A DNA stretch of 64,000 nucleotides from the NCBI GenBank assembly GCA_040384565.1, contig JAZKJC010000010.1, positions 7,113-71,112 of the forward strand. Direction: 5' to 3'. The position numbers and the translations under genes are program-made. The first letter of the stretch is position 1; every line of letters begins with the position of its first letter. The notes below the pieces were generated by a model. The model saw only the letters and a list, made by a program, of their open reading frames with translations, was not told where the DNA came from and made no database searches. Shown here one piece after another: positions 19,041-40,911 of this stretch. The DNA comes from Patescibacteria group bacterium. Lineage in GTDB: Bacteria > Patescibacteriota > Saccharimonadia > Saccharimonadales > JAZKJC01.

Positions 19041-19129
19041 GTTTTCCGTTTTCCGTTTACTATTTACCATACATTTTCCTTTTTCTGTTTTCCATGGACA
19101 ACGGCTAATGGTTTATGCATGGTAAACAG
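19041..19129. repeat. Intergenic inverted-repeat element, copy A
   Basis: Ends ccgtttac...ggtaaacag. Shares ctgttttccat with copy B. Internal heptamers gttttcc gttttcc gtttac. Confidence 0.55.
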
Positions 19130-19763: not shown

Positions 19764-20957
19764 TTACCTGGGGGCAGGTAGCTTATGACTAAATGTCTGT
19801 TTTGTGAGAGGAGATTCGGGCCATGCGATAAAGTAGTGGCTAAGGTGGTAAAAAGAAACTAACAGTATGCTCAGTGAAAGCAGTGTAGTAGCTATGGCCC
19901 GGGCGATTGGGTTATGCGGGAATACAGCATACCATTGTTGCAGCATGAATGTCAGGCCAAGTGCTATGAATATGTATGCTATGGGTACAAGGACAGTGAT
20001 GGCAACCGGGCCACCAAGTCCAATTAGTATGCCAAAATAGATACAGCCAACAATTAGCATCTGGCTTCTTATGAGCCGCCAATAGTTTCTTAAACTATAA
20101 AATCCAACGATCATCATAACGGTGGAGAATGCGTCAAATAACGGCAATCTACCTAACCACTTGGTGGCGTCGTCTGGGCCTCTGAGGAGGAAATATTCAG
20201 GTATGTTTAGAAGATTATTGCCTATTGTTTTTAGCTTGGGCATTCCGGTAGGTAACCCAACTGCACGGAGCAATTCCCTGGTGCTATCAATGCTCGCCAA
20301 AATCAGCGGTAACAAGAGTATGCAGATTATCAATCCGCACAACAAACGAAACCACCAAGGTACTTGACGCAGCTCACTCCATATTTTCTTGTATTGCCAT
20401 ACAGCTATCCCAACCAATAAAACACCAAAACCAGGTATATAAAAAGCCATACCGCTTAGCAAACTTAAGACTATAAGCGCTGTTTTGCGAAGGGTCGTGT
20501 TATAAAGCCAAATTGCTGCCCATACCAATGGCAGAATTAGCAAATATGATGCCTCTGGGCTTGCTAGCCGTCCTATGTGCAATAGCCAAGCAGAGGTTAA
20601 GAAGAGCCAGGTTCCTAATATGGCTATGCGGTCAGTTGACCATTCGCGCAATATAAAAAAACAACTTACAACGGAAAGCGCGGCAAATATTACGCTTACG
20701 AGTCGGTAGAAAGCTATGCGCTGAATGTCCAACTTGAACAGCAAATATGTTGGAATTTTATGTAGCGCGTACGTCGGGTTTTGTAAAAGCTCCCTGCCAG
20801 AGTCTACGGATGCTATATAGTCACGTTCTGATAGGCTTACTCCCCCGGTAAGGCTTCCAAGCCTAAACCCCAAAATACCGCAAACAATTACAGCAACAAC
20901 CAAAAAAGCCAATATTGGCTTCCACATTAACACCACCCACTCTCTAAACTTTTTCAT
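19764..20957 (-). CDS. Polytopic membrane protein, GT-C (ArnT/PMT)-like, tentative
   Basis: 397 aa with about 10 predicted TM helices. Its general resemblance to CPR ArnT-like glycosyltransferases is my impression only. Confidence 0.45.
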   Translation of the reverse strand: MKKFREWVVLMWKPILAFLVVAVIVCGILGFRLGSLTGGVSLSERDYIASVDSGRELLQNPTYALHKIPTYLLFKLDIQRIAFYRLVSVIFAALSVVSCFFILREWSTDRIAILGTWLFLTSAWLLHIGRLASPEASYLLILPLVWAAIWLYNTTLRKTALIVLSLLSGMAFYIPGFGVLLVGIAVWQYKKIWSELRQVPWWFRLLCGLIICILLLPLILASIDSTRELLRAVGLPTGMPKLKTIGNNLLNIPEYFLLRGPDDATKWLGRLPLFDAFSTVMMIVGFYSLRNYWRLIRSQMLIVGCIYFGILIGLGGPVAITVLVPIAYIFIALGLTFMLQQWYAVFPHNPIARAIATTLLSLSILLVSFYHLSHYFIAWPESPLTKQTFSHKLPAPR

Positions 20958-20980: not shown

Positions 20981-21064
20981 AACCCGTTACCGTTTACCGT
21001 TCTCTGTTTTCCATACAGTAACCATCGCCTGTTTACCATGAAAACGAAGAATGGTAAACGGTTT
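20981..21064. repeat. Intergenic inverted-repeat element, copy B
   Basis: Perfect 10-bp terminal inverted repeat accgtttacc (20989..20998) / ggtaaacggt (21053..21062). Shares the 15-mer taccgttctctgttt with copy C. Confidence 0.6.
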
Positions 21065-31084: not shown

Positions 31085-31501
31085 TTACGCAAGCTCTACT
31101 GTTGCGCCGGCGGCTTCGAGAGTTTTCTTGGCTGCTTCTGCGTCGTCTTTCTTTGCCTTTTCAAGAATGGTCTTTGGAGCACCATCAACTAAGGCTTTTG
31201 CTTCACCTAGACCTAGGCCGGATATGTCCTTGACAGCCTTAATGACAGCGACTTTCTGAGCGCCGGCGTCTTTTAGGATTACGTCGTATTCGGCTTTGGC
31301 TTCTTCTGCAGGAGCGGCGTCACCTGCTGGAGCAGCTGCAACAGCGGCTGCAGGAGCGGCGGCACTTACGCCCCAGTATTCTTCTAGAAACTTAACAAAT
31401 TTACTTATTTCAAGTGCTGACATTTTGTCCAGCTCTTTAACAATAGCCGTGAACTCTTTTGGAACTTCTACCGCTTCGGTTTTCTTATCTTCATCTGCCA
31501 T
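31085..31501 (-). CDS. rplL: 50S ribosomal protein L7/L12
   Basis: 138 aa. Ala/Pro hinge and C-terminal [27 protein letters not shown]. Confidence 0.95.
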
Positions 31502-31538
31502 TTCATTCTCCTTAAATATTATTTATCAATTTGTACAT

Positions 31539-32072
31539 TTACTGTCCTATGGCTTCGGCGCGCGCACTCAAAACGTTCAGTACGCCCCTAACATTGCCGG
31601 CCATAACGTTCATAAAGCCACTTAGTGGCGCTGCGATAGTCCCAACCAACATGCCACGTAGCTGTTCTTTGCTTGGCAAACTTGCCAGAGCTTTTACATC
31701 ATCGGCACCAATGAAGCTACCATCTGCCGTAATTGCGCCAACAAACTGAATTGTTGGCTGCGTCTTGGCAAAAGTTGCCAAAATTTGTGCCGGAGCAACT
31801 TCGTCCTCGGTGTTAAAGGCATATAAAAGCATGCCCTCTAGTGCGCTAGTATCAGTTGTTTTGGTTAATTCATTAGCCTGCAAAGCCTTGATTACCAGAC
31901 GGTTTTTAACAACTTGTACTTTTGTACCGTTGTCTCTAGCCTGTCTGCGCAGTGCTTGCATAGCTTTGACGGGTGTACCTTGATAAGCTGCCACAACAGT
32001 CAGCTTGGAGCTGGCCAATAGTCCTGCCGTTTGGGCGACAACCTCGTCTTTTTTCTGCTTAGTTAATGCCAT
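31539..32072 (-). CDS. rplJ: 50S ribosomal protein L10
   Basis: 177 aa. Family-typical N-terminus (KKDEVVAQTAGLLASSKLTVVAAYQGTPVKAMQALRRQAR) and position upstream of rplL. Confidence 0.9.
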   Translation of the reverse strand: MALTKQKKDEVVAQTAGLLASSKLTVVAAYQGTPVKAMQALRRQARDNGTKVQVVKNRLVIKALQANELTKTTDTSALEGMLLYAFNTEDEVAPAQILATFAKTQPTIQFVGAITADGSFIGADDVKALASLPSKEQLRGMLVGTIAAPLSGFMNVMAGNVRGVLNVLSARAEAIGQ

Positions 32073-32373
32073 GTGTCTCCTTCCAGTCGAATTTTCAGTT
32101 TTCAGTTATCAATTTTCATTACTGAAGATCAAAAACAAATCTCTGAATTCGACACATTGTCTTGCAACCTCGACCTGGGTTGATTGTCGTTACCAATAAA
32201 AAAGCCCTTGGTTTTATCCAAAGACCAGTGAAGTTTACAAATTTTTAGTTAACAGCTATAAGCTAACTGCTAACCGCTAAATTGCTGCCTCGGCGACATT
32301 ATCAAGCCTTTTTACAGACCGTCGCTGTCTTTGGTAACAAATATATGCTACCAAAGTAGTCTGTGACTGTCAA
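32073..32373 (-). promoter_or_regulatory. rplJ promoter and long structured leader (possible L10-leader-type attenuator)
   Basis: Minus strand: TTGACA (32373..32368), 17 nt, TAGCAT (32350..32345). The roughly 265-nt leader contains the hairpin CTTTGGataaaaCCAAGG followed by GCTTTTTTATT (about 32196..32226). It also contains two blocks of 7-nt tandem motifs (32250..32285 and 32093..32120). Confidence 0.4.
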
Positions 32374-32400
32374 TCTGTTATTGATTACCTGAATCTCGAA

Positions 32401-32829
32401 TTACCACTCCATCTGTAACAACTGGTAGCCGAACAATATCCGCAGGTAATGCAGGGCGTAGTTCGGCATGCTCCTTGGGAAACTGCTTTGCGGATGTAAA
32501 TACTGTTTGAGGTAGTCAAACACTGTCTCAATCTTCGGTCTGCGTCTCAGTAGTTTAAGACGGCTTTTGGTAAGTAGTTGTTTTTTGTTGTTTGTAGTGT
32601 GGCGGAACCACAAAGACAGTACCCCATAAGTGGTTTAGCTTCTTGTGTAAGGCGCTGCGGTAACCACTGTTACCAACCGCCACCTTGAAGCCGTAATGTT
32701 CACCCTGGTGGTTGTAGCCCCCCTAGCGACTTTATGCCAACGCCTGCGGACAAGTCGGCAGACTTCTAGTATGGTCGAGTCCATAAAACAAAGCCATGCT
32801 TCACTGGCGAGCAGGCTGTTTAATACCAA
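32401..32829 (-). pseudogene. IS982-like transposase remnant (frameshifted, N-terminally truncated)
   Basis: Two ORF fragments: ...FMDSTILEVCRLVRRRWHKVARG... and ...RRRPKIETVFDYLKQ...FPRS...LFGYQLL. They match the middle and C-terminal patterns of IS982-type transposases as I remember them. No intact ORF and no inverted repeats were identified. Confidence 0.5.
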
Positions 32830-32850
32830 TTCTTTCAGGCCTAAGGCAGT

Positions 32851-33309
32851 TTATGATATGGCTGCCGGTAGATTAACGACTTTTTGTTGTATTCCGAACT
32901 CATTTGTAATGACTTGCATGCATCCGAGCGTCACAGAGACTTCGCCAAGTTGAGGCGCTACGAGTGCTAAGGCTGCAGTTTGATCCTGCTTGAAAAGGCC
33001 AAAATGTTCGGGAAGCCGTGGAACAAATAGCCGATAATTTCCGTCAGATGTTTGAGCGATTTCACCAGGATGCAACGCAGTTTCATTTCCTATGCCCGGT
33101 GGTCGATATTTAACAGCAATTTTGCCCAGTGGATAGCTACTTACTAAAATTCTGCGACCATCCTTGTCGTGAGTTTCGCATGGCGTGTTCGCTACTCTAC
33201 TGTTATCAGATGTAATACTAATTGGTGAACTGCCGCAAGCTGTTAGCAAGCTTAATCCCGCGATTATAGTCGCACCCTTTTCTAAAGCAAAACCTTTTCT
33301 CATACTCAT
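32851..33309 (-). CDS. Lipoprotein, unknown function
   Basis: 152 aa. Lipobox LSLLTAC-G after a hydrophobic signal. Confidence 0.6.
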   Translation of the reverse strand: MSMRKGFALEKGATIIAGLSLLTACGSSPISITSDNSRVANTPCETHDKDGRRILVSSYPLGKIAVKYRPPGIGNETALHPGEIAQTSDGNYRLFVPRLPEHFGLFKQDQTAALALVAPQLGEVSVTLGCMQVITNEFGIQQKVVNLPAAIS

Positions 33310-33512
33310 AAACTCCGATTAACCTAAGTATTAACTACATAAATAATACAAACACTAAATTGTATAAAAGTCAATCGTATTTTTTACATAATATTCTCAC
33401 GCGCTTCAATAGAGATAACTGAAACCACGATGCTATTTTTCTTATCAGAGATGAGTATTTAATAAAACTATGCTATATCAGGGAAAGGGCTTCGAGATTC
33501 TGGTGTTATTGA

Positions 33513-34121
33513 TTACTTTGTAGATAGCTGGCTTAACTGGTCACGATGATGCCCATTGGTAGAATTATGCGGTAAGTTATATCGACCCATATAGTCACTG
33601 AGTCGTATCGCTTGTTCTCTACTAGCAAAAAGACCCTCAACAACCTCATCACTTGCTTGCGACCCCAGAGCCAAAAAAACCTCACGGAATAGTGGATCAA
33701 ATCGTCGCATACCACCTGTTACCCGAGAGTAGATAACTAACAATTGCTCATATGCCGCATGTGGGTCATCCCATACACGCTCAACCATGCGATCTGGATG
33801 AGTCAAAAGATTTGCGAGACTACTGGGATCGGAATAGACAGAGTCGGAATCTGCACAATGCTGCTCTTCTTGATGCGCTGTTTTACGTTTGTTTGCTTTC
33901 ATGACTCTTTTGGCAACGTCAACGTCAATGGCTCCGTAAACGCTTCCGGCAAACATAGCTTTAGCAATTTCTGCTTCGTTGCTTTCGTCGACTAATCCAT
34001 CCATTGCTCTAGGATAAATAGCTAAAGATCCCAGAGCTTGCGGATAGTCAATTGGAGTAGTCGAAAGTTTTTTCAGAAAACCACTTTCTGGTTGTATGGG
34101 GTAAGTGGTCATCTCTGCCAT
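33513..34121 (-). CDS. Hypothetical protein
   Basis: 202-aa ORF with RBS aggaaagag. No motif recognised. Confidence 0.5.
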   Translation of the reverse strand: MAEMTTYPIQPESGFLKKLSTTPIDYPQALGSLAIYPRAMDGLVDESNEAEIAKAMFAGSVYGAIDVDVAKRVMKANKRKTAHQEEQHCADSDSVYSDPSSLANLLTHPDRMVERVWDDPHAAYEQLLVIYSRVTGGMRRFDPLFREVFLALGSQASDEVVEGLFASREQAIRLSDYMGRYNLPHNSTNGHHRDQLSQLSTK

Positions 34122-34142
34122 GATCTCTTTCCTTTCTAATTA

Positions 34143-34170
34143 AAACGCCCCGCTGGTGCGGGGTCGTTTG
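34143..34170 (-). terminator. Hairpin terminator/attenuator between 34271..34504 and 33513..34121
   Basis: Minus strand: ACGACCCCGCaccaGCGGGGCGT followed by TTTAATT. It lies only about 20 nt before the next start codon. Confidence 0.5.
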
Positions 34171-34270
34171 TGTAACAAAAGTAAACTACCCGCGTCTCAG
34201 AGAGTAAGAATAATCACTTCTGTTACAGTTTTGTACATAATTTATATAGTGATCCCAGGGCTAGCTTTTG

Positions 34271-34504
34271 TCAAGCGGGCAGTGATGCCATCCATTCATT
34301 CACTTCGGGTGCTTTATCAGGCTCGGTTCCGCTTTCAGCAGCAGAACCCACATAATCTACGCCGCTTCTTCTAGAAATAACTACAGCTTTAACTACAAAG
34401 TTCGGACTCGGCTCGTCATGGACTGGGATAACATCTGCTACCAGTTTGCCTGGCTCGTTACTAATATCAATTAATGCTCCTACCTGTCTACCTAATTCTG
34501 CCAT
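34271..34504 (-). CDS. Small hypothetical protein downstream of a riboswitch-like leader
   Basis: 77 aa with AAGGAG RBS. No motif recognised. Confidence 0.5.
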   Translation of the reverse strand: MAELGRQVGALIDISNEPGKLVADVIPVHDEPSPNFVVKAVVISRRSGVDYVGSAAESGTEPDKAPEVNEWMASLPA

Positions 34505-34705
34505 TTCAACTCCTTAAATATTAAAAAATAATCAGGTGGTGAAGCCTGATTGGTTATCTGTTAGCTGTGCTGATGTCCGCTGCAAACGGATCAGGCTTCA
34601 ATCATAGTGAAGCACAGCCCTGATAGGCTGAGTAGGAGCAAGTCCAAGTTGCGCTTCAAAATTCTCATTAAGACTGAATGTACTCCACTCTTGTATCTAT
34701 GTCAA
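34505..34705 (-). promoter_or_regulatory. Promoter plus about 165-nt leader with mutually exclusive terminator/antiterminator helices
   Basis: Minus strand: TTGACA (34705..34700), 17 nt, TACATT (34682..34677). Terminator: AATCAGGcttcaccaCCTGATT + ATTTTTT (34523..34552), directly before the RBS. Its right arm, tgaagcctgat on the plus strand (34540..34550), is also perfectly complementary over 11 nt to 34590..34600. That partner can in turn pair with 34607..34612. Confidence 0.55.
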
Positions 34706-34731
34706 TGATTTTTACTGGGATTTGGGATTTG

Positions 34732-35046
34732 CTATGCGAATATTTCCTGTAAAATCCCAATGAGATTATTTTTTTCGGGTTGGCTTAAAGAGCCAATTTT
34801 ACTCGTCAATCTCTGTTTGGCTACTGATCGCATCTGGTCGCATGCTGCCGAAGATAATTTTCCGGTTGATTTAATAGTTAAACGAAATGGCCAATCAATT
34901 ATGGTAGATGTTAGCGGAACTACTATTACCGTATTAACTGTACTATTCATTATGTCTGGCGAAACTACTATGCAGGGTCGTGTCTTTTTCATTTCGCTGC
35001 CTTTTGTAGGGTTTAGATCAGTCCAGTAAATATCGAACTGCTTCAT
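34732..35046 (-). CDS. mazF: MazF/PemK family toxin (endoribonuclease)
   Basis: 104 aa. MKQFDIYWTDLNPTKGSEMKKTRPCIVVSPD is a family hallmark. Confidence 0.85.
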   Translation of the reverse strand: MKQFDIYWTDLNPTKGSEMKKTRPCIVVSPDIMNSTVNTVIVVPLTSTIIDWPFRLTIKSTGKLSSAACDQMRSVAKQRLTSKIGSLSQPEKNNLIGILQEIFA

Positions 35047-35303
35047 ATGCCGTCATCTAGCGTAATATCCCATTCATCAAGTTCGGGATCAGGCTTGGTG
35101 GCTTTAGGGTTTCCCCGCAATACTTTAGCAATTTGTTTAGCCCAACCTGAGCGTGGCTGTTTGGTACCGTGTAAAATTATTTTGCCCTGTTTAGCCTCAA
35201 TCTCGACAGTGTCCGTCAAGCCACTCATAGCGAGCATGGTTTTTGGCAAGCGAACGGCAGTGCTGTTTCCGTCTTTGATCAGTTTGGCTGTGATAGTTGC
35301 CAT
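35043..35303 (-). CDS. mazE: AbrB/MazE/SpoVT-type antitoxin
   Basis: 86 aa. The swapped-hairpin motif KDGNSTAVRLPKTML. Overlaps mazF by 4 nt. TACAAT lies 9 nt upstream of the ATG. Confidence 0.8.
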   Translation of the reverse strand: MATITAKLIKDGNSTAVRLPKTMLAMSGLTDTVEIEAKQGKIILHGTKQPRSGWAKQIAKVLRGNPKATKPDPELDEWDITLDDGI

Positions 35304-35349
35304 AGTGGTTACATTGTACCCACTTGAGCAATGATTGTCAATAAATCGA

Positions 35350-37740
35350 TCATCTGGGATTTGGGTGCTTCGCTACGGCATCTTTATCCAATTTTTCCAG
35401 CTTGTATTGAGTAGCTCTCTCGGCAGCTAGACGGGAGAGTTCCGGGTCTTCACCCTGATTTACGAATTTCATGGCTTCAGCCATCATGGGGTGGACTTCG
35501 CCCAACTTTTCGTGCATTTGTTGTACTAATTTGCGATAACCGGGGTGCCCCTGCGGGCTGGTCCGTAGTTCATGCAGGTGGAAAGCTTCTCTGGCATTGT
35601 AGGTAACTTTCCAGCGCATTTTGTGGCCTAAAAGCGTGGCGTATTGTGCTTCTAACTCAAAACCAGCCTCTTGCAACTGGCTGTGAAGCGCCAGGCTGAT
35701 GTCAAAGCATTTTTCGAACTGCTCGCTTAATCCAGCTTCTTCTACTAATTTGGACATTTCATAGCCGTAGCGAGGGGTCAACAGCTGCCACTGCATATCA
35801 TCTACCATCCTGTGGCGTTGAAGATCACGAAAGATGCCGTAATCACACATCAAATCCCAGCTGTAGTGGGCTTTTTCAATAGCTCTGCCTGGCCGGTGCC
35901 TGCGATTGAGACGTTCGCCAATGTATGCCGTAAATACTTCCTCTTTTTTGCTGATCGGCCACTTGGCTACTTGTGTCTGCACGCCTTTTAGTGGCAAATT
36001 GCTGTGTTCGTAGAGCATATCAGGAACAAGATCTAGCTCATTACGTGGCCAGTAAGACACAAGCTGGACTGCTTCGCTAGCATCAGCGTGTTTATCGCTT
36101 AAGTGCTTTTCTGCTAAATCACGGACCGTCTGCCGTGTATTGGCGTTATAGGCAATTGTCGCTCCGCCACGATCGGGCTTGTCGGCTCGTTCCAAAAATG
36201 TTGGCACTACTTTGCGTGCTTCAGCGAGCATTTGTTGCCCAGTAGCACGAGCTTCCAGCATATCGTCACTCAATAGATGCATAATAAGGCTTTCAAGTGC
36301 TTGACCGGAGGCAAAAATGCCAACGGTAGACTTTGTAGCTACAGGCAGCACTGGCCGGATCGCATCACATGCTTGAGCACGAGTAGCACCCTGCCAGGCA
36401 ATGTCTTGCTCTTCCTTTGGTACATCTGCTTTCTCACGTACATATTTGGTAAGTTTATGTACCATATCGGAATACAAGTTAAATATTTCATCTATAGAAT
36501 GTTCGTACAAAACTTTAGTCTTTTGGTCAAAATTGGTAGGGGTATAGTATTTGTACTTGCCGTCCTCATCTTTCTGGTCATAAAAAATATAGCGGGTGGA
36601 TTGTTCTAAGTAGGCTGCCAAACGTCCCCATTCTAACTTTTTAGTTAATAAGTTACTGGCGGCTTCTACGACTATATATTCGCCAACCAACTGTTGGACT
36701 GAATCGTCGCCGTAGGCTGTTATGACGCGTTGCAGCAATTTTTCGTCTTTGCCCAGTGCCCCCGCAAACTCGTCCAAAAGAGTCACCCGCATATCATCGC
36801 CGCGTCTAGATAACCTCGCCATGGCGGCAGCAATGGTTATTGGGCTCAACTTTTCGTAAAATCCATAAACATTTCCGGTGGTGTTGGTGACGCTTTCCTC
36901 TAAAAATTTCTGGCCAACAGCAGTAATTTTGTAGCCATCTTCCGTTTTCTGAATATATGGATTGTTGGCTTTGGTAACCGATGGTGCCTGCGTTGTCTTA
37001 AGCTCACTGCTCACCGCTCTTTGCTCATGGCTGCTAGTCTTATCAGGCAATAGCGGCTCCACGGCTTGCCACAGTAAACTATGAACAGTGTCTGCATCCA
37101 AGAGCTTACCGGCTCTTATGCAGTCAATGATGGCAAAGTCTTTTGGAAATAGTTGGCACATAGTTTCATAAACTTCAACCGAACGTTTCATGTGCTCAAT
37201 ATCGGCTTCGTGAATATCGCGCTTATTGTCCGTATATTCGCGTTTTTCTTTCTTATCAACCAACCCCTGAGCAATTTCGGCTGGCACACGTAAAACAATC
37301 GAGCGGTCAGGCCGTGGTATTTTAAGAACTTCAAATTCCAGGTTTTCATTCCAAAGGAAATAACCGCGACGATGTTCAGCGTGGTTAAACTTGGCCCCTT
37401 GATGGGCCATATTGCTGCCGGTATAACGGTTAGTGATAACAATTTTACCTGACTCTAGTGCCTCGCGTATTGCGGGAGCTGCCTGGTACCTGTCAAGAGC
37501 GTAAAATAACGAAGCCGTGTAAGGCCCAACCTGCTCGGCGGTTCCGTACGCCCCGTTCAAATACTCTTTGACGAAATATGAGGACGGTAGGTCGTACTGC
37601 GGAAAGTCAAACACGGCGACATCGTAGCCGTCGTTCTTGAGCCGTTCAACGAGTTTTTTGAACTGCGTGGTTTTGCCTGAACCGTCTGTTCCTTCGATGG
37701 CTATAAGCGTACCTTGGGCTCTTGGCGCTTGCTTGCTCAT
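35350..37740 (-). CDS. tmk-thyX: Fusion: thymidylate kinase (N-terminal) + long-form FAD-dependent thymidylate synthase ThyX (C-terminal)
   Basis: 796 aa. The N-terminal roughly 235 aa carry IAIEGTDGSGKTTQ and a Tmk-like body. The C-terminal roughly 530 aa carry ThyX hallmarks (LEQSTRYI...; FRDLQRHRM). Confidence 0.8.
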   Translation of the reverse strand: MSKQAPRAQGTLIAIEGTDGSGKTTQFKKLVERLKNDGYDVAVFDFPQYDLPSSYFVKEYLNGAYGTAEQVGPYTASLFYALDRYQAAPAIREALESGKIVITNRYTGSNMAHQGAKFNHAEHRRGYFLWNENLEFEVLKIPRPDRSIVLRVPAEIAQGLVDKKEKREYTDNKRDIHEADIEHMKRSVEVYETMCQLFPKDFAIIDCIRAGKLLDADTVHSLLWQAVEPLLPDKTSSHEQRAVSSELKTTQAPSVTKANNPYIQKTEDGYKITAVGQKFLEESVTNTTGNVYGFYEKLSPITIAAAMARLSRRGDDMRVTLLDEFAGALGKDEKLLQRVITAYGDDSVQQLVGEYIVVEAASNLLTKKLEWGRLAAYLEQSTRYIFYDQKDEDGKYKYYTPTNFDQKTKVLYEHSIDEIFNLYSDMVHKLTKYVREKADVPKEEQDIAWQGATRAQACDAIRPVLPVATKSTVGIFASGQALESLIMHLLSDDMLEARATGQQMLAEARKVVPTFLERADKPDRGGATIAYNANTRQTVRDLAEKHLSDKHADASEAVQLVSYWPRNELDLVPDMLYEHSNLPLKGVQTQVAKWPISKKEEVFTAYIGERLNRRHRPGRAIEKAHYSWDLMCDYGIFRDLQRHRMVDDMQWQLLTPRYGYEMSKLVEEAGLSEQFEKCFDISLALHSQLQEAGFELEAQYATLLGHKMRWKVTYNAREAFHLHELRTSPQGHPGYRKLVQQMHEKLGEVHPMMAEAMKFVNQGEDPELSRLAAERATQYKLEKLDKDAVAKHPNPR

Positions 37741-38441
37741 AGTGCTTTTAAACCTTTGATCTCCTCCGGTAACTTTCTGCTGTCTTTATATGCTCGCGGC
37801 AGCATCTGTTCTGGCGTCCAGTTGGCAATAATAGAATCCAAATCATCACTAGCATTAGGCTGGTACTTACCACTTAGCTTCTTGTACTCGCTATCTACCG
37901 GCCCAGTCTCATAGAACACCATTTGGGCAACTCGTTCGCCGACAGGCAAAACAACACTTTCGTGCTGGTTCATATTGTAAATTTCCATTGTCCAACGGTT
38001 AATATAGCCAGGATCTCCCCAGCCAGCATCTAAACAAACAGCAACGCCGTTCCTGCCCCAAGTACTCCTGGCTTGCATGGTGCTAGTGCCAGGCGCCTTA
38101 ATTCCTATAAATTCGTGCGTATGCCCCAGGATACGTTCTTGGGGGCGCAAGACAATAATAGGATAGTCCGGTGGAATGTTGGCGAACAGTTTACGTCCAT
38201 GCTTTTCTGCCCATTCCTGATGAACCTCTGCTTTCATGGCGCCACTAAAGTATTGATTCACTGAAGCCTTGTCAAAGGGATTATAGAAGCCACCCTGACT
38301 AGGTCTTTCTGTGCGATAGAACCATTCTCCGAGCGTCACATCTATACTGCTACCCGCAATGTGTTCTTCCACATAGGGGTGATATACGATGTGACCTGCC
38401 TTAATGGCGGCCTTGATTTGAATATTGCTATAGACTCCCAT
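37737..38441 (-). CDS. dcd: dCTP deaminase / dUTPase-superfamily protein
   Basis: 234 aa. The N-terminal IKAAIKAGHIVYHPYVEEHIAGSSIDVTLGEWFY fits the Dcd pattern. ATGA overlap with tmk-thyX. Confidence 0.7.
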   Translation of the reverse strand: MGVYSNIQIKAAIKAGHIVYHPYVEEHIAGSSIDVTLGEWFYRTERPSQGGFYNPFDKASVNQYFSGAMKAEVHQEWAEKHGRKLFANIPPDYPIIVLRPQERILGHTHEFIGIKAPGTSTMQARSTWGRNGVAVCLDAGWGDPGYINRWTMEIYNMNQHESVVLPVGERVAQMVFYETGPVDSEYKKLSGKYQPNASDDLDSIIANWTPEQMLPRAYKDSRKLPEEIKGLKAL

Positions 38442-38556
38442 CTCCTCCTATTGTACGAAATATTTTGTGGTCTTTACAATGATATGCGGAAATATTACAA
38501 CTAAATTTTGAGTATAAACCTACGACGCGTGTAATCTATTGACTAAAGAATCTAAC

Positions 38557-39312
38557 TTATAGAGACGCAGTATGGTAAGTGCTCTGAAGTTTATTTTGTT
38601 TTAAGTCCTCGTAGAATATAGCCGTGAACTTACGTACGTCAGCTACCGTGCCATTGCTCATGATAGTGCAATCAACCTGAATATTTTGTCTTTCACGTTC
38701 GGTTGGATCCAGCATGTCGCTTTGCAGATGTCCTGGGCGATATACCTTAACAATAATCGCGCCGGCGCCACGCAAAATCGCGGCATCGCTGGGGTATCGT
38801 AAACCTCCTACAATGCATAACTCGCAACCTGCCGCGGCTGCTTGCCTGATACGACGTACAATTTCGTTATACCAGATGCCACTGTCTATGCGTTGTACAA
38901 GATAACCCCCAAGCCACTGCAGAAGCGGCCTAAAGCTTTCTTTATTATCCTTGGTGATTGGTTGATTAATAAGTTCTGGTCTGCGTTGTAAGTTCTCTAC
39001 ATGGAGTATTAGCTTTTGGTATTCCACAGGGTGTTCTTCCATAGCTATTTGGTCAAGTTTAATTTGCTCAAAGTTAGCGCGGGCATGGACAATATCCATA
39101 AGAATAGGCGGTAACGCTCGTAACCAGTTGTTTAATCGTTCCACATTGTACGGGTCGGGTATATCATTAAGCGCTGATTGAAACGCGTTAGCCACCTCTG
39201 CGATTATTAATGATGTTTCAAGGTGAACTGTCGAAGGCACAAGCTCCTTAAGGCCATCAGCAAAAGTGCTCTTGCCGTGTCCAATGGGCCCGGTCATTCC
39301 GATTATTATCAT
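38557..39312 (-). CDS. P-loop kinase (CoaE / dNMP-kinase-like), tentative
   Basis: 251 aa. GMTGPIGHGKST P-loop, and IVGGLRYPSDAAILR reminiscent of dNMP kinases. Confidence 0.4.
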   Translation of the reverse strand: MIIIGMTGPIGHGKSTFADGLKELVPSTVHLETSLIIAEVANAFQSALNDIPDPYNVERLNNWLRALPPILMDIVHARANFEQIKLDQIAMEEHPVEYQKLILHVENLQRRPELINQPITKDNKESFRPLLQWLGGYLVQRIDSGIWYNEIVRRIRQAAAAGCELCIVGGLRYPSDAAILRGAGAIIVKVYRPGHLQSDMLDPTERERQNIQVDCTIMSNGTVADVRKFTAIFYEDLKQNKLQSTYHTASL

Positions 39313-39350
39313 AACCTTATTGTACTAAAATACTGCCACTTGTAGAAAGT

Positions 39351-39788
39351 TTATTTAATTACGATGCGCAGATGAGGTTTCTCGAAGTATATTAAGCCTC
39401 TAACCTTGCGCCTGGCTAGCTTAATAAGATGGGTATGTTGGTGCGTGACAGATTTCATGACAGATCCAGGCGCGCGGGCATAAATGTCATAGCCTTTTTG
39501 TTCATATTTACTGATTGTCCTGACAAATTCACTAGCTGCCTCTGGGGTAATATCGGCTAGCGTATCAGTGTGTTGTTTTGGTATAAGCATCAGGTGATCC
39601 AGGACTGGCTGATTATCCCATAGCGAATACGGAAATATATTGTGAACCACCATAAAAGAGCTTGTTTCACTCACAAACTGTTTATGGGACCTATCTATTG
39701 CGCAAAAATCACATTTATTGCTGTTATTTTTGGCCTTAGACAAATGTTTATCATAAGCTTTAGTCTGTTTGTTGGATCGGTAAGACAT
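39351..39788 (-). CDS. HIT family protein
   Basis: 145 aa. Histidine triad HQHTHLI. Confidence 0.75.
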   Translation of the reverse strand: MSYRSNKQTKAYDKHLSKAKNNSNKCDFCAIDRSHKQFVSETSSFMVVHNIFPYSLWDNQPVLDHLMLIPKQHTDTLADITPEAASEFVRTISKYEQKGYDIYARAPGSVMKSVTHQHTHLIKLARRKVRGLIYFEKPHLRIVIK

Positions 39789-39805
39789 AATTGATCTCCG
39801 ATTGG

Positions 39806-40792
39806 CTATACTTCGGATATCTCTACAGGAATACTTGGTCCCATGCTTGTGGTAACAAATATAGATTTGACATATGTGCCTTTAAGGCTAGCCGGTTTGT
39901 TAGATTTTATGTTGTCCATAAGAGCTAAGCCATTTTTGAGTAAGTTGTCACCGCCAAAGCTTACCTTGCCTATGCCAGCATGCACTATACCCGTACTATC
40001 TACTCGGTATTCAACCCGGCCTGCTTTGGCTTCAGTAACTGCTTTTGCAACATCGGTGGTTACTGTACCGCTTTTGGGGTTTGGCATAAGGCCTTTTGGC
40101 CCTAATAAACGAGCATACTTGCCTAGTTTTGACATAGATTGTGGTGTGGCGATCAGAACATCAAAATCTATTTTACCTTTTTCTAACTGTTGCAAAAATT
40201 CATCACTTGCTGCGATATCAGCGCCAGCTTTTTTGGCCTTTTCTACGTTATCACCCTCAGCGAATACGGCTATTCGCAATGTTTTCCCTGTTCCAGCGGG
40301 CAATACTATGGTGTCACGAAGATTCTGGTCGGCCTGTCTGGGGTCTATGCCCAAGCGTATATGCAGCTCTACTGTAGCGTCAAACTTAACCGGACTTGTC
40401 TTTGTAGCAAGCTCCAGGGCGTCTTTAAGGCTATAAATTTTATGCTTTTCGATCTGCTCAGCCAGTTTGCGGAAATTCTTGCCCTTACGTTCTAGCAATG
40501 AACGTGATGGCTTTTGGAGAACCTTTGGCTTCTCTTGTTCAGTAGTTTTAGATTTTAAGACTTCTGCCTTTCGGGCTTCCTTGGCTTTTAAGGCTTCAGC
40601 TTCTTTATGTGCTTTCTCGCTGCGCTTACCAGCCTTGGCAGTAGCCTTCGGCTCTTGAGCAATGAGCTCTGAGCTTTGAGCAATGACGACTTCGTCGACT
40701 ATAGACTCTGCTTTTGCTGCTGGTTTTTTAGGTACAGCTTTCTTTGTTACTTTTTTATTTTCATTGCTCGGTGCTAGTTCTTCTTTGCTCAT
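39806..40792 (-). CDS. rplA: 50S ribosomal protein L1 with about 100-aa Lys/Ala/Glu-rich N-terminal extension
   Basis: The L1 body starts near GKNFRKLAEQIEKHKIYSLKDALEL...FDATVELHIRLGIDPRQADQNLR. Start set at MSKEEL (GAAAGGA RBS); the ORF track extends to 40843. Confidence 0.85.
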   Translation of the reverse strand: MSKEELAPSNENKKVTKKAVPKKPAAKAESIVDEVVIAQSSELIAQEPKATAKAGKRSEKAHKEAEALKAKEARKAEVLKSKTTEQEKPKVLQKPSRSLLERKGKNFRKLAEQIEKHKIYSLKDALELATKTSPVKFDATVELHIRLGIDPRQADQNLRDTIVLPAGTGKTLRIAVFAEGDNVEKAKKAGADIAASDEFLQQLEKGKIDFDVLIATPQSMSKLGKYARLLGPKGLMPNPKSGTVTTDVAKAVTEAKAGRVEYRVDSTGIVHAGIGKVSFGGDNLLKNGLALMDNIKSNKPASLKGTYVKSIFVTTSMGPSIPVEISEV

Positions 40793-40911
40793 CTTTTGTC
40801 CTTTCGTGGTATTAACATACTGGCACTCCCAGCACTCCCACAAATTAATTACTCATTTAAGGATAGCATATACGCTCATAATTAGTAAATACAGCTCATA
40901 AATGTTATTAT

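Follow-up and report, generated by a model that had tools for sequence, protein, structure and literature searches.

A mazEF cassette between short direct repeats in a variable gene interval of a Saccharibacteria genome

Toxin-antitoxin (TA) modules of the mazEF/pemIK (chpA) type are found on chromosomes and plasmids and pair a PemK/MazF toxin with a small upstream antitoxin gene that overlaps the toxin gene. In these modules the labile antitoxin MazE keeps MazF, a sequence-specific mRNA endoribonuclease, in an inactive state. Here we describe a mazE-mazF pair from a metagenome-assembled genome (MAG) of a Saccharibacterium (contig JAZKJC010000010.1; source metagenome SRR26324625), located next to the 3' end of a tmk-thyX gene fusion and bracketed by two copies of a perfect 12-nt direct repeat, and we analyze it within a window that comprises the whole stretch of 64,000 nt (43.6% GC). 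The pair has the gene arrangement of the known modules, and the palindrome over the -10 element of its promoter suggests autoregulation as in mazEF/pemIK. It differs from the characterised modules by its low sequence identity, by an antitoxin that falls under the Pfam cut-off and by its reduced-genome host.

Several described processes offer points of comparison for the location of this cassette. Integron TA cassettes, such as those of Vibrio superintegrons, are likewise compact units of ~0.6-0.8 kb with their own promoter and direct repeats around them, but the present locus holds neither attC or core sites nor a cassette array, and its 12-nt repeats consist of local sequence. As in the minimal mobile elements of Neisseria, the genes found here between thyX and rplJ differ by genome between conserved anchors and have no dedicated recombinase, although transformation or homologous exchange alone would leave no flanking duplications. 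Campbell-type insertion-duplication and homology-facilitated illegitimate recombination place an insert between direct target copies that vary in length and whose outer and inner flanks are unrelated. They can also restore the target gene with its 3' end intact, as at two homologous loci discussed below (L036 and L127) and in the window; these processes are however known mainly from laboratory transformation, and a homology of 12 nt lies at their low end. Transposons leave target-site duplications, of 9-12 bp in the IS4 family of insertion sequences (IS) and long and variable in IS1634. The short perfect direct repeats immediately around the insert resemble such duplications, but the unit has no terminal inverted repeats or transposase and repeat length is not fixed among related cassettes.

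The features of the locus are listed in Table 1. A preliminary description of this DNA had reported the perfect 12-nt repeat, with copies that bracket mazE-mazF, had placed its second copy in the last codons (PNPR-stop) of tmk-thyX and had noted a similar promoter after each copy on the minus strand, all of which we confirmed; both promoters are near-consensus sigma-70 promoters. We also confirmed that mazE-mazF fills the interval between the copies, which we measured as 627 nt (639 nt start-to-start) and which contains mazE, mazF and the mazE promoter. Copy B is made of the last base of the His codon, the Pro-Asn-Pro codons and two bases of the Arg codon, and is followed on the minus strand by the tmk-thyX stop codon (35350-35352). 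A search of the window with CTGGGATTTGGG gave exactly two matches, even with one mismatch allowed (0.24 expected; two matches were reached in 1 of 100 shuffles).

Table 1. Position of the mazEF cassette, its flanking repeat and the adjacent genes in the window.
Feature	Position	Strand	Description
Direct repeat copy A, CTGGGATTTGGG	34715-34726		5 nt past the mazF stop, 9 nt before the -35 of the p77 promoter (minus strand)
Direct repeat copy B, CTGGGATTTGGG	35354-35365		within the last five tmk-thyX codons (H-P-N-P-R), 12 nt before the -35 of the mazE promoter
mazF	34732-35046	-	104 amino acids (aa), PemK/MazF-family endoribonuclease toxin; Pfam PF02452 E=2.6e-28
mazE	35043-35303	-	86 aa, antitoxin with weak AbrB/MazE/SpoVT-like N-terminal domain
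19-bp near-palindrome GTGGGTACAATGTAACCAC	35323-35305	-	overlaps the -10; putative MazE/MazEF operator
mazE promoter, TTGACA-17-TACAAT	35341-35313	-	11/12 consensus positions; kept in L036, L041, L038, L127, L123 and L130
p77 leader promoter, TTGACA-17-TACATT	34705-34677	-	
p77 transcription unit	34271-34676	-	~170-nt leader and 77-aa ORFan (34271-34504)
tmk-thyX fusion	35350-37740	-	thymidylate kinase + ThyX, 796 aa; conserved left anchor of the islet
tmk-thyX C-terminal tail DKDAVAKHPNPR	35353-35388	-	lineage-specific, 12 codons; absent from all 120 closest homologues
Variable islet	32389-35349		tmk-thyX to L10-leader promoter; mazEF, p77, p202, p152, degraded IS982-like transposase remnant

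The toxin was identified with the Pfam profile PF02452 (PemK_toxin; 98.8 bits for a cut-off of 23.1), its best solved relative is E. coli MazF (PDB 1ub4_A, E=1.3e-11) and its C-terminus is complete when aligned with homologues. MazE matches PF04014 weakly (21.7 bits, under the cut-off of 24.7), has PDB matches to 7d2n_E (E=0.0037) and to the MazE chain 1ub4_C (E=0.027), and gives weak matches to VapB/MazE families of NCBIfam. It is encoded directly upstream of mazF in the same orientation, with a 4-nt overlap of the mazE stop and mazF start, an arrangement that is repeated in homologous loci; the two genes are translationally coupled. By analogy with the family, MazF would act as a toxic RNase and MazE would regulate its own expression. 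The tmk-thyX, MazF and p77 proteins of the window are identical to NCBI entries that carry the name of Patescibacteria group bacterium MAG proteins. An exact-protein look-up retrieved the same MazF from a single Logan contig, identical to the window; no close relative was found on viral contigs, and the plasmid homologues (787 PLSDB records) reach at most ~47% identity among the records listed. The cassette contains no transposase and no terminal inverted repeats, and no inverted-repeat pair links its ends at 35353 and 34727. A mild dip in GC content (0.39-0.42 compared to 0.48-0.50 in thyX) is uninformative.

Six homologous cassettes located in unrelated contexts align with the window upstream of mazE, as TTGACA-N12-GTGGGTAC(A/T)ATGTAAC(C)... 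up to the start codon, and the segment GTGGGTAC(A/T)ATGTAA is invariant across these six and the window. Homology between cassettes runs from about the -35 element to the mazF stop, which defines the mobile unit as promoter-to-stop, ~610 bp. Since the promoter and the palindrome are kept in the six cassettes found elsewhere, both travel with the cassette. We read the 610-bp unit (35341-34732, minus strand) as an autonomous cassette of the type II mazEF class that would function in addiction; its 19-bp near-palindrome presumably serves as the operator for autorepression by MazE or MazE-MazF.

We collected the genomic contexts of the closest MazF homologues (60-73% identical) and scored flanking repeats at loci with at least 60% amino-acid identity. 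These close homologues sit in at least eight other genomic contexts, and in 4/8 independent contexts mazEF is bracketed by locus-specific direct repeats of 37-115 nt (best scores per context 56-94). The same bracket test applied to 437 real gene units, from the window and from Saccharibacteria loci, gave a maximum score of 31. Close homologues of the window cassette thus show a strong enrichment of locus-specific repeats at their flanks. The longest pair (L036; 115 nt, 76% identity, score 94) consists of the 3' end of a convergent aminoacyl-tRNA synthetase gene downstream and a pseudo-copy of that 3' end upstream; L041, which represents the same insertion, retains it in a shortened form (28 nt, 93%, score 48). 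At L127 (62 nt, ~85%, score 82) a co-directional upstream gene contributes its 3' end as the upstream copy, as is the case for thyX in the window. Both copies at L038/L039 (83 nt, score 56) resemble fragments of one coding sequence, and the pair at L125 (37 nt, ~95%, score 60) is intergenic. The repeats are thus often the duplicated 3' end of an adjacent gene, and they lie at uneven distances from the conserved promoter-to-stop unit, 8-122 nt on its upstream side and -4 to 100 nt on its downstream side.

Further differences were seen among these loci. In L036 (4597-4718) and L041 (2456-2545) the -35 of mazE is separated from the upstream repeat by ~90-120 nt that contain a pair of conserved hairpins (CAAGGAGGCTCCTTG, TTCAGGGCTNAGCCCTGAA); these may be insulating terminators and are absent from the window cassette. 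L125 and L126, which come from two samples, encode an identical MazF (P0029), but a neighbouring AAA_33-NUDIX-Crp-PAS block is oppositely oriented relative to mazF in the two and L126 has no room for mazE; either the segment was inverted across the cassette or the assembly is chimeric. More distant MazF homologues from metagenomes (40-50% identity) have flanking repeats of 100-255 nt, several of which resemble the attC sites typical of integron cassettes (TAACG...GCGTTA imperfect palindromes; L085, L104 and L097). At these three loci and at L049 (39-49% identity), repeats with such attC-like ends measure 30-140 nt; another locus, L054, has 255-nt flanking repeats with 89% identity.

We then considered the site of insertion. 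A genome scan with tmk-thyX retrieved 34 loci (best amino-acid identity 72%). In 26 of these Saccharibacteria relatives the order L1-(HIT/DNMK)-dcd-tmk/thyX-[variable]-L10-L12 is kept, and the interval between thyX and rplJ measures 229 to 4298 nt and holds ilvA, RidA, GGDEF, HMGL-like or unknown genes. None of the 26 intervals contains mazEF, p77, p202 or p152 (the last a lipoprotein-like protein in the window), and TA genes are not enriched in the islet of the relatives. In Saccharibacteria, this interval is a general accessory-gene hotspot. The adjacent thyX end is itself unusual: in 100 of 120 homologues ThyX ends 6-8 residues from the start of the conserved [FY][KR]L motif, whereas the window protein has the longest tail of this comparison (18 residues, YKLEKLDKDAVAKHPNPR) and is the sole one with PNP. 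Because this tail is unique among the 120 homologues, copy B lies outside conserved thyX sequence, in a lineage-specific, probably remodelled thyX 3' end. The earlier proposal that mazEF was inserted at the thyX 3' end is supported by the variable interval of relatives that lack mazEF, by the unique tail and by the presence of MazF homologues in at least eight other contexts.

This layout splits the ribosomal L11/L1-L10-L12 cluster of Saccharibacteria. In the window L1 (39806-40843) and L10 (31539-32072) are separated by HIT, DNMK, dcd, tmk-thyX and the variable islet, and the same layout is kept in the 26 relatives (window 31085-40843; loci L001-L033). The L10 leader was detected with Rfam at 32189-32352, and a frameshifted IS982-type transposase remnant (32401-32829, minus strand; DDE_Tnp_1_3, E=0.007 and 0.016 on two open reading frame (ORF) fragments) separates p152 from the L10-leader promoter.

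We favor, with moderate confidence, the reading that mazEF is a horizontally acquired addiction cassette that integrated by short-homology insertion-duplication and that the 12-mer is the scar of this insertion. The cassette would have been acquired into the hypervariable islet between tmk-thyX and the rplJ leader, and the 12-nt repeat would be local target sequence duplicated at integration. The repeats differ in every context and the 12-mer was not found in 132 other fetched loci, so it is local sequence rather than an element-borne site. Integration could have proceeded from a circular cassette by a single crossover at short homology, which would yield a perfect repeat whose inner flanks are unrelated to the outer ones, or by fill-in of a staggered break with the same outcome. 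The long diverged 3'-end repeats of L036 and L127 would fit Campbell-type insertion-duplication, and also homology-facilitated illegitimate recombination with a donor DNA carrying its own version of the 3' end; both processes would keep the target gene intact, an outcome that selection would retain in compact genomes. Removing the cassette and one repeat in silico predicts an ancestral site that reads ...CAC CCA AAT CCC AGT AAA AAT CAT TGA, in which thyX would have four more codons (...HPNPSKNH) and its TGA would lie inside the -35 hexamer of p77. The predicted empty junction is GCGAAGCACCCAAATCCCAGTAAAAATCATTGACATAGATAC and the predicted circle junction is TTCGCATAGCAAATCCCAAATCCCAGATGATCGATTTATTGACAATC. 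A footprint of cassette mobility without a transposase, as initially proposed, is plausible and gains support from the enrichment of flanking repeats in the cassette family; for the 12-mer itself it is unproven.

The alternative that survives best is that the 12-mer pair is coincidental, mazEF having been inserted, or exchanged by homologous recombination in flanking genes, without target duplication. We consider this unlikely, though a serious contender, and several results weigh on its side and against an insertion scar. The window contains six exact direct repeats of at least 12 nt at 300-1500 nt spacing, for 5.3 +/- 2.4 expected from third-order Markov simulations, and the repeat under study was picked post hoc. 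When the 300 nt upstream of mazE are locally aligned with the 300 nt that follow mazF, the score is 24, a value that is reached by ~6-7% of random pseudo-cassettes and real gene units (P 0.06-0.07) and thus puts the repeat at the 93rd-94th percentile only. Copy A is part of a slippage-prone tandem heptamer (CAAATCC-CAAATCC-CAG on the minus strand), and Smith-Waterman alignment of the flanks, compared with dinucleotide shuffles, shows no similarity past the 12 nt in either direction (P=0.18 and P=0.49). Half of the eight homologous contexts (L123, L130, L131 and L132) have no flanking repeat, and where present the repeats are long and diverged while that of the window is short and perfect, so that a common process is assumed by analogy. 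No empty site exists in the databases: the closest thyX in a search of 5.8 billion proteins is 76% identical and p77 has no homologue. With best tmk-thyX identities of 72% in the genome scan and 76% in the protein search, no relative is close enough for an empty site at the nucleotide level, and, as the p77 search finds only p77 itself, no thyX-p77 empty site is possible in the protein collection. Lastly, the operator function and the integration mechanism are both inferred.

Against coincidence stand the positions of the copies, which both lie within 12 nt of the functional ends of the cassette. With flanks of 40-60 nt a score of 24 is reached by 0.07-0.1% of controls (P ~0.001 before multiple testing, roughly 0.05-0.07 when allowing for the ~70 genes in the window). 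The strong enrichment of flanking repeats in the cassette family also argues against it, as does a second junction-to-junction repeat, a 13-mer, in the same islet: gene-junction zones make up 15% of the window, and two of the six repeat pairs have both copies in such zones, both in one 3.3-kb islet. The 12-mer is real and its position unusual, yet taken alone it is not compelling.

The 13-nt repeat (TGTTATTGATTAC) is exact, occurs at 32376-32388 and 33504-33516 and brackets p152 and the IS remnant. Of its copies, one runs into the stop codon of p202 and the other lies 2 nt before the -35 of the L10-leader promoter, so that the pair shares the gene-end/promoter-front geometry of the mazEF 12-mer. 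A DNA-uptake sequence was also considered as the identity of the 12-mer and was rejected, with just two occurrences in 64 kb.

A shared cis-regulatory box located ~10 nt before each -35, through which mazEF and p77 would be co-regulated, is very unlikely: both copies do precede a strong -35 by 9-12 nt on the same strand, but there are only two in 64 kb, the box is not kept before homologous mazE promoters, one copy is coding and no regulator was identified.

The preliminary description had further proposed that the cassette copied the resident promoter along with the repeat. Such a duplication, whether the TA pair copied the p77 promoter or the p77 promoter was copied from that of mazE, is highly improbable. 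The two promoters share TTGACA, a 17-nt spacer and TACA(A/T)T, and when aligned in register match at 11/12 hexamer positions, but they match at only ~6/26 other positions; they have in common the consensus hexamers and a GTGG(A)G just before the -10, and nothing more. The spacers are unrelated, as are the linkers between repeat and -35, which also differ in length (12 nt for mazE, 9 nt for p77), and the pattern TTGACA-N16-18-TAnnnT occurs at eight sites in the window, the L10-leader promoter among them. In the formal alignment, which had been set beforehand as the refuting test, the similarity of promoters and flanks vanishes (the flank scores given above are at chance), and aligning the p77 leader to the cassette, as a test for a decayed second cassette copy, gave no significant similarity (P=0.12). 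The mazE promoter is moreover kept in six cassettes elsewhere, which refutes a copy of the resident promoter. The p77 promoter is independent of the mazE promoter and their resemblance is that of consensus look-alikes.

We give equally little credence to mobilisation in trans by a dedicated system, site-specific or transpositional (integron attC x attI, Xer/pdif-type modules or an IS-mobilised element resembling miniature inverted-repeat transposable elements), for which the 12-mer would be the site or the target-site duplication. In its favor, attC-like repeats surround distant MazF homologues (L085, L104 and L097; 40-50% identity), the window contains the IS982-like remnant and an IS1595-family transposase, and 12 bp fits the range of target-site duplications in the IS4 family. 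Against it, the 26 nt from the mazF stop to the next -35 hold no inverted repeat, no GTTRRRY core and no palindromic attC, and terminal inverted repeats are absent; repeat length (12 to 115 nt) and sequence vary by context with no fixed duplication length; the 12-mer is absent from all other loci (n=132); and the ends of the cassettes lie unevenly around the conserved promoter-to-stop unit. In the Pfam overview of 56 window ORFs, no integrase is among the 25 families listed of 85 matched.

Other features of the window were noted in passing. The ribosome-binding site and first codons of p77 (TAATATTTAAGGAGTTGAAATGGCAGA, 34497-34523) match those of rplL (L7/L12; 31494-31521), 3 kb away, at 26/28 positions; no other pair among the 282 junction-zone pairs of the window scores higher, and the match breaks off abruptly at either end. 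The p77 leader (34505-34676, minus strand) has a terminator-like hairpin and T-run (34551-34530) just before the Shine-Dalgarno sequence, and its segment 34600-34585 could pair with the 5' arm of this hairpin in an attenuator-like layout. It has no Rfam match in gathering or E-value mode (the window matches are a tRNA and the L10 leader only), and its fold energy is not unusual (z = -1.1). The second-best junction pair of the window is an imperfect 70-nt direct repeat (19043-19112 and 20987-21055) rich in TTTCCGTTT/TTTACCAT motifs, which flanks a ~1.9-kb segment including a 397-aa ORF (19764-20957). Other defense or mobility genes include a helix-turn-helix SocA/Panacea antitoxin (312-1037), two zeta-toxin-domain proteins, AbiJ and a type I restriction-modification system (HsdM/HsdS); the Pfam overview also lists the IS1595-family transposase, type IV secretion system pilins, and TraG and HerA-like ATPases.

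For the window itself the result is mostly corrective: mazEF is a standard module with its own promoter in a general hotspot for accessory genes, the promoter next to it is a look-alike, and the case is largely ordinary. Beyond the window, we suggest tentatively that the promoter-bearing mazEF cassettes of this subfamily may spread among Saccharibacteria and related bacteria through insertion-duplication that needs no recombinase, for instance when a circle or a fragment of the cassette integrates at short homology. Such a process would copy 12-115 nt of target sequence, in many cases from the 3' end of a neighbouring essential gene, such that the gene would stay intact and a locus-specific repeat would mark each insertion, the 12-mer being the minimal example. 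A literature search on TA cassettes flanked by direct repeats and on TA systems in Saccharibacteria returned nothing directly relevant, and there is little documentation of how TA cassettes move between chromosomal sites without a recombinase of their own. Should the locus-specific duplications at the flanks of this cassette family be true insertion scars, they would provide a sequence signature for such movement that is open to systematic survey.

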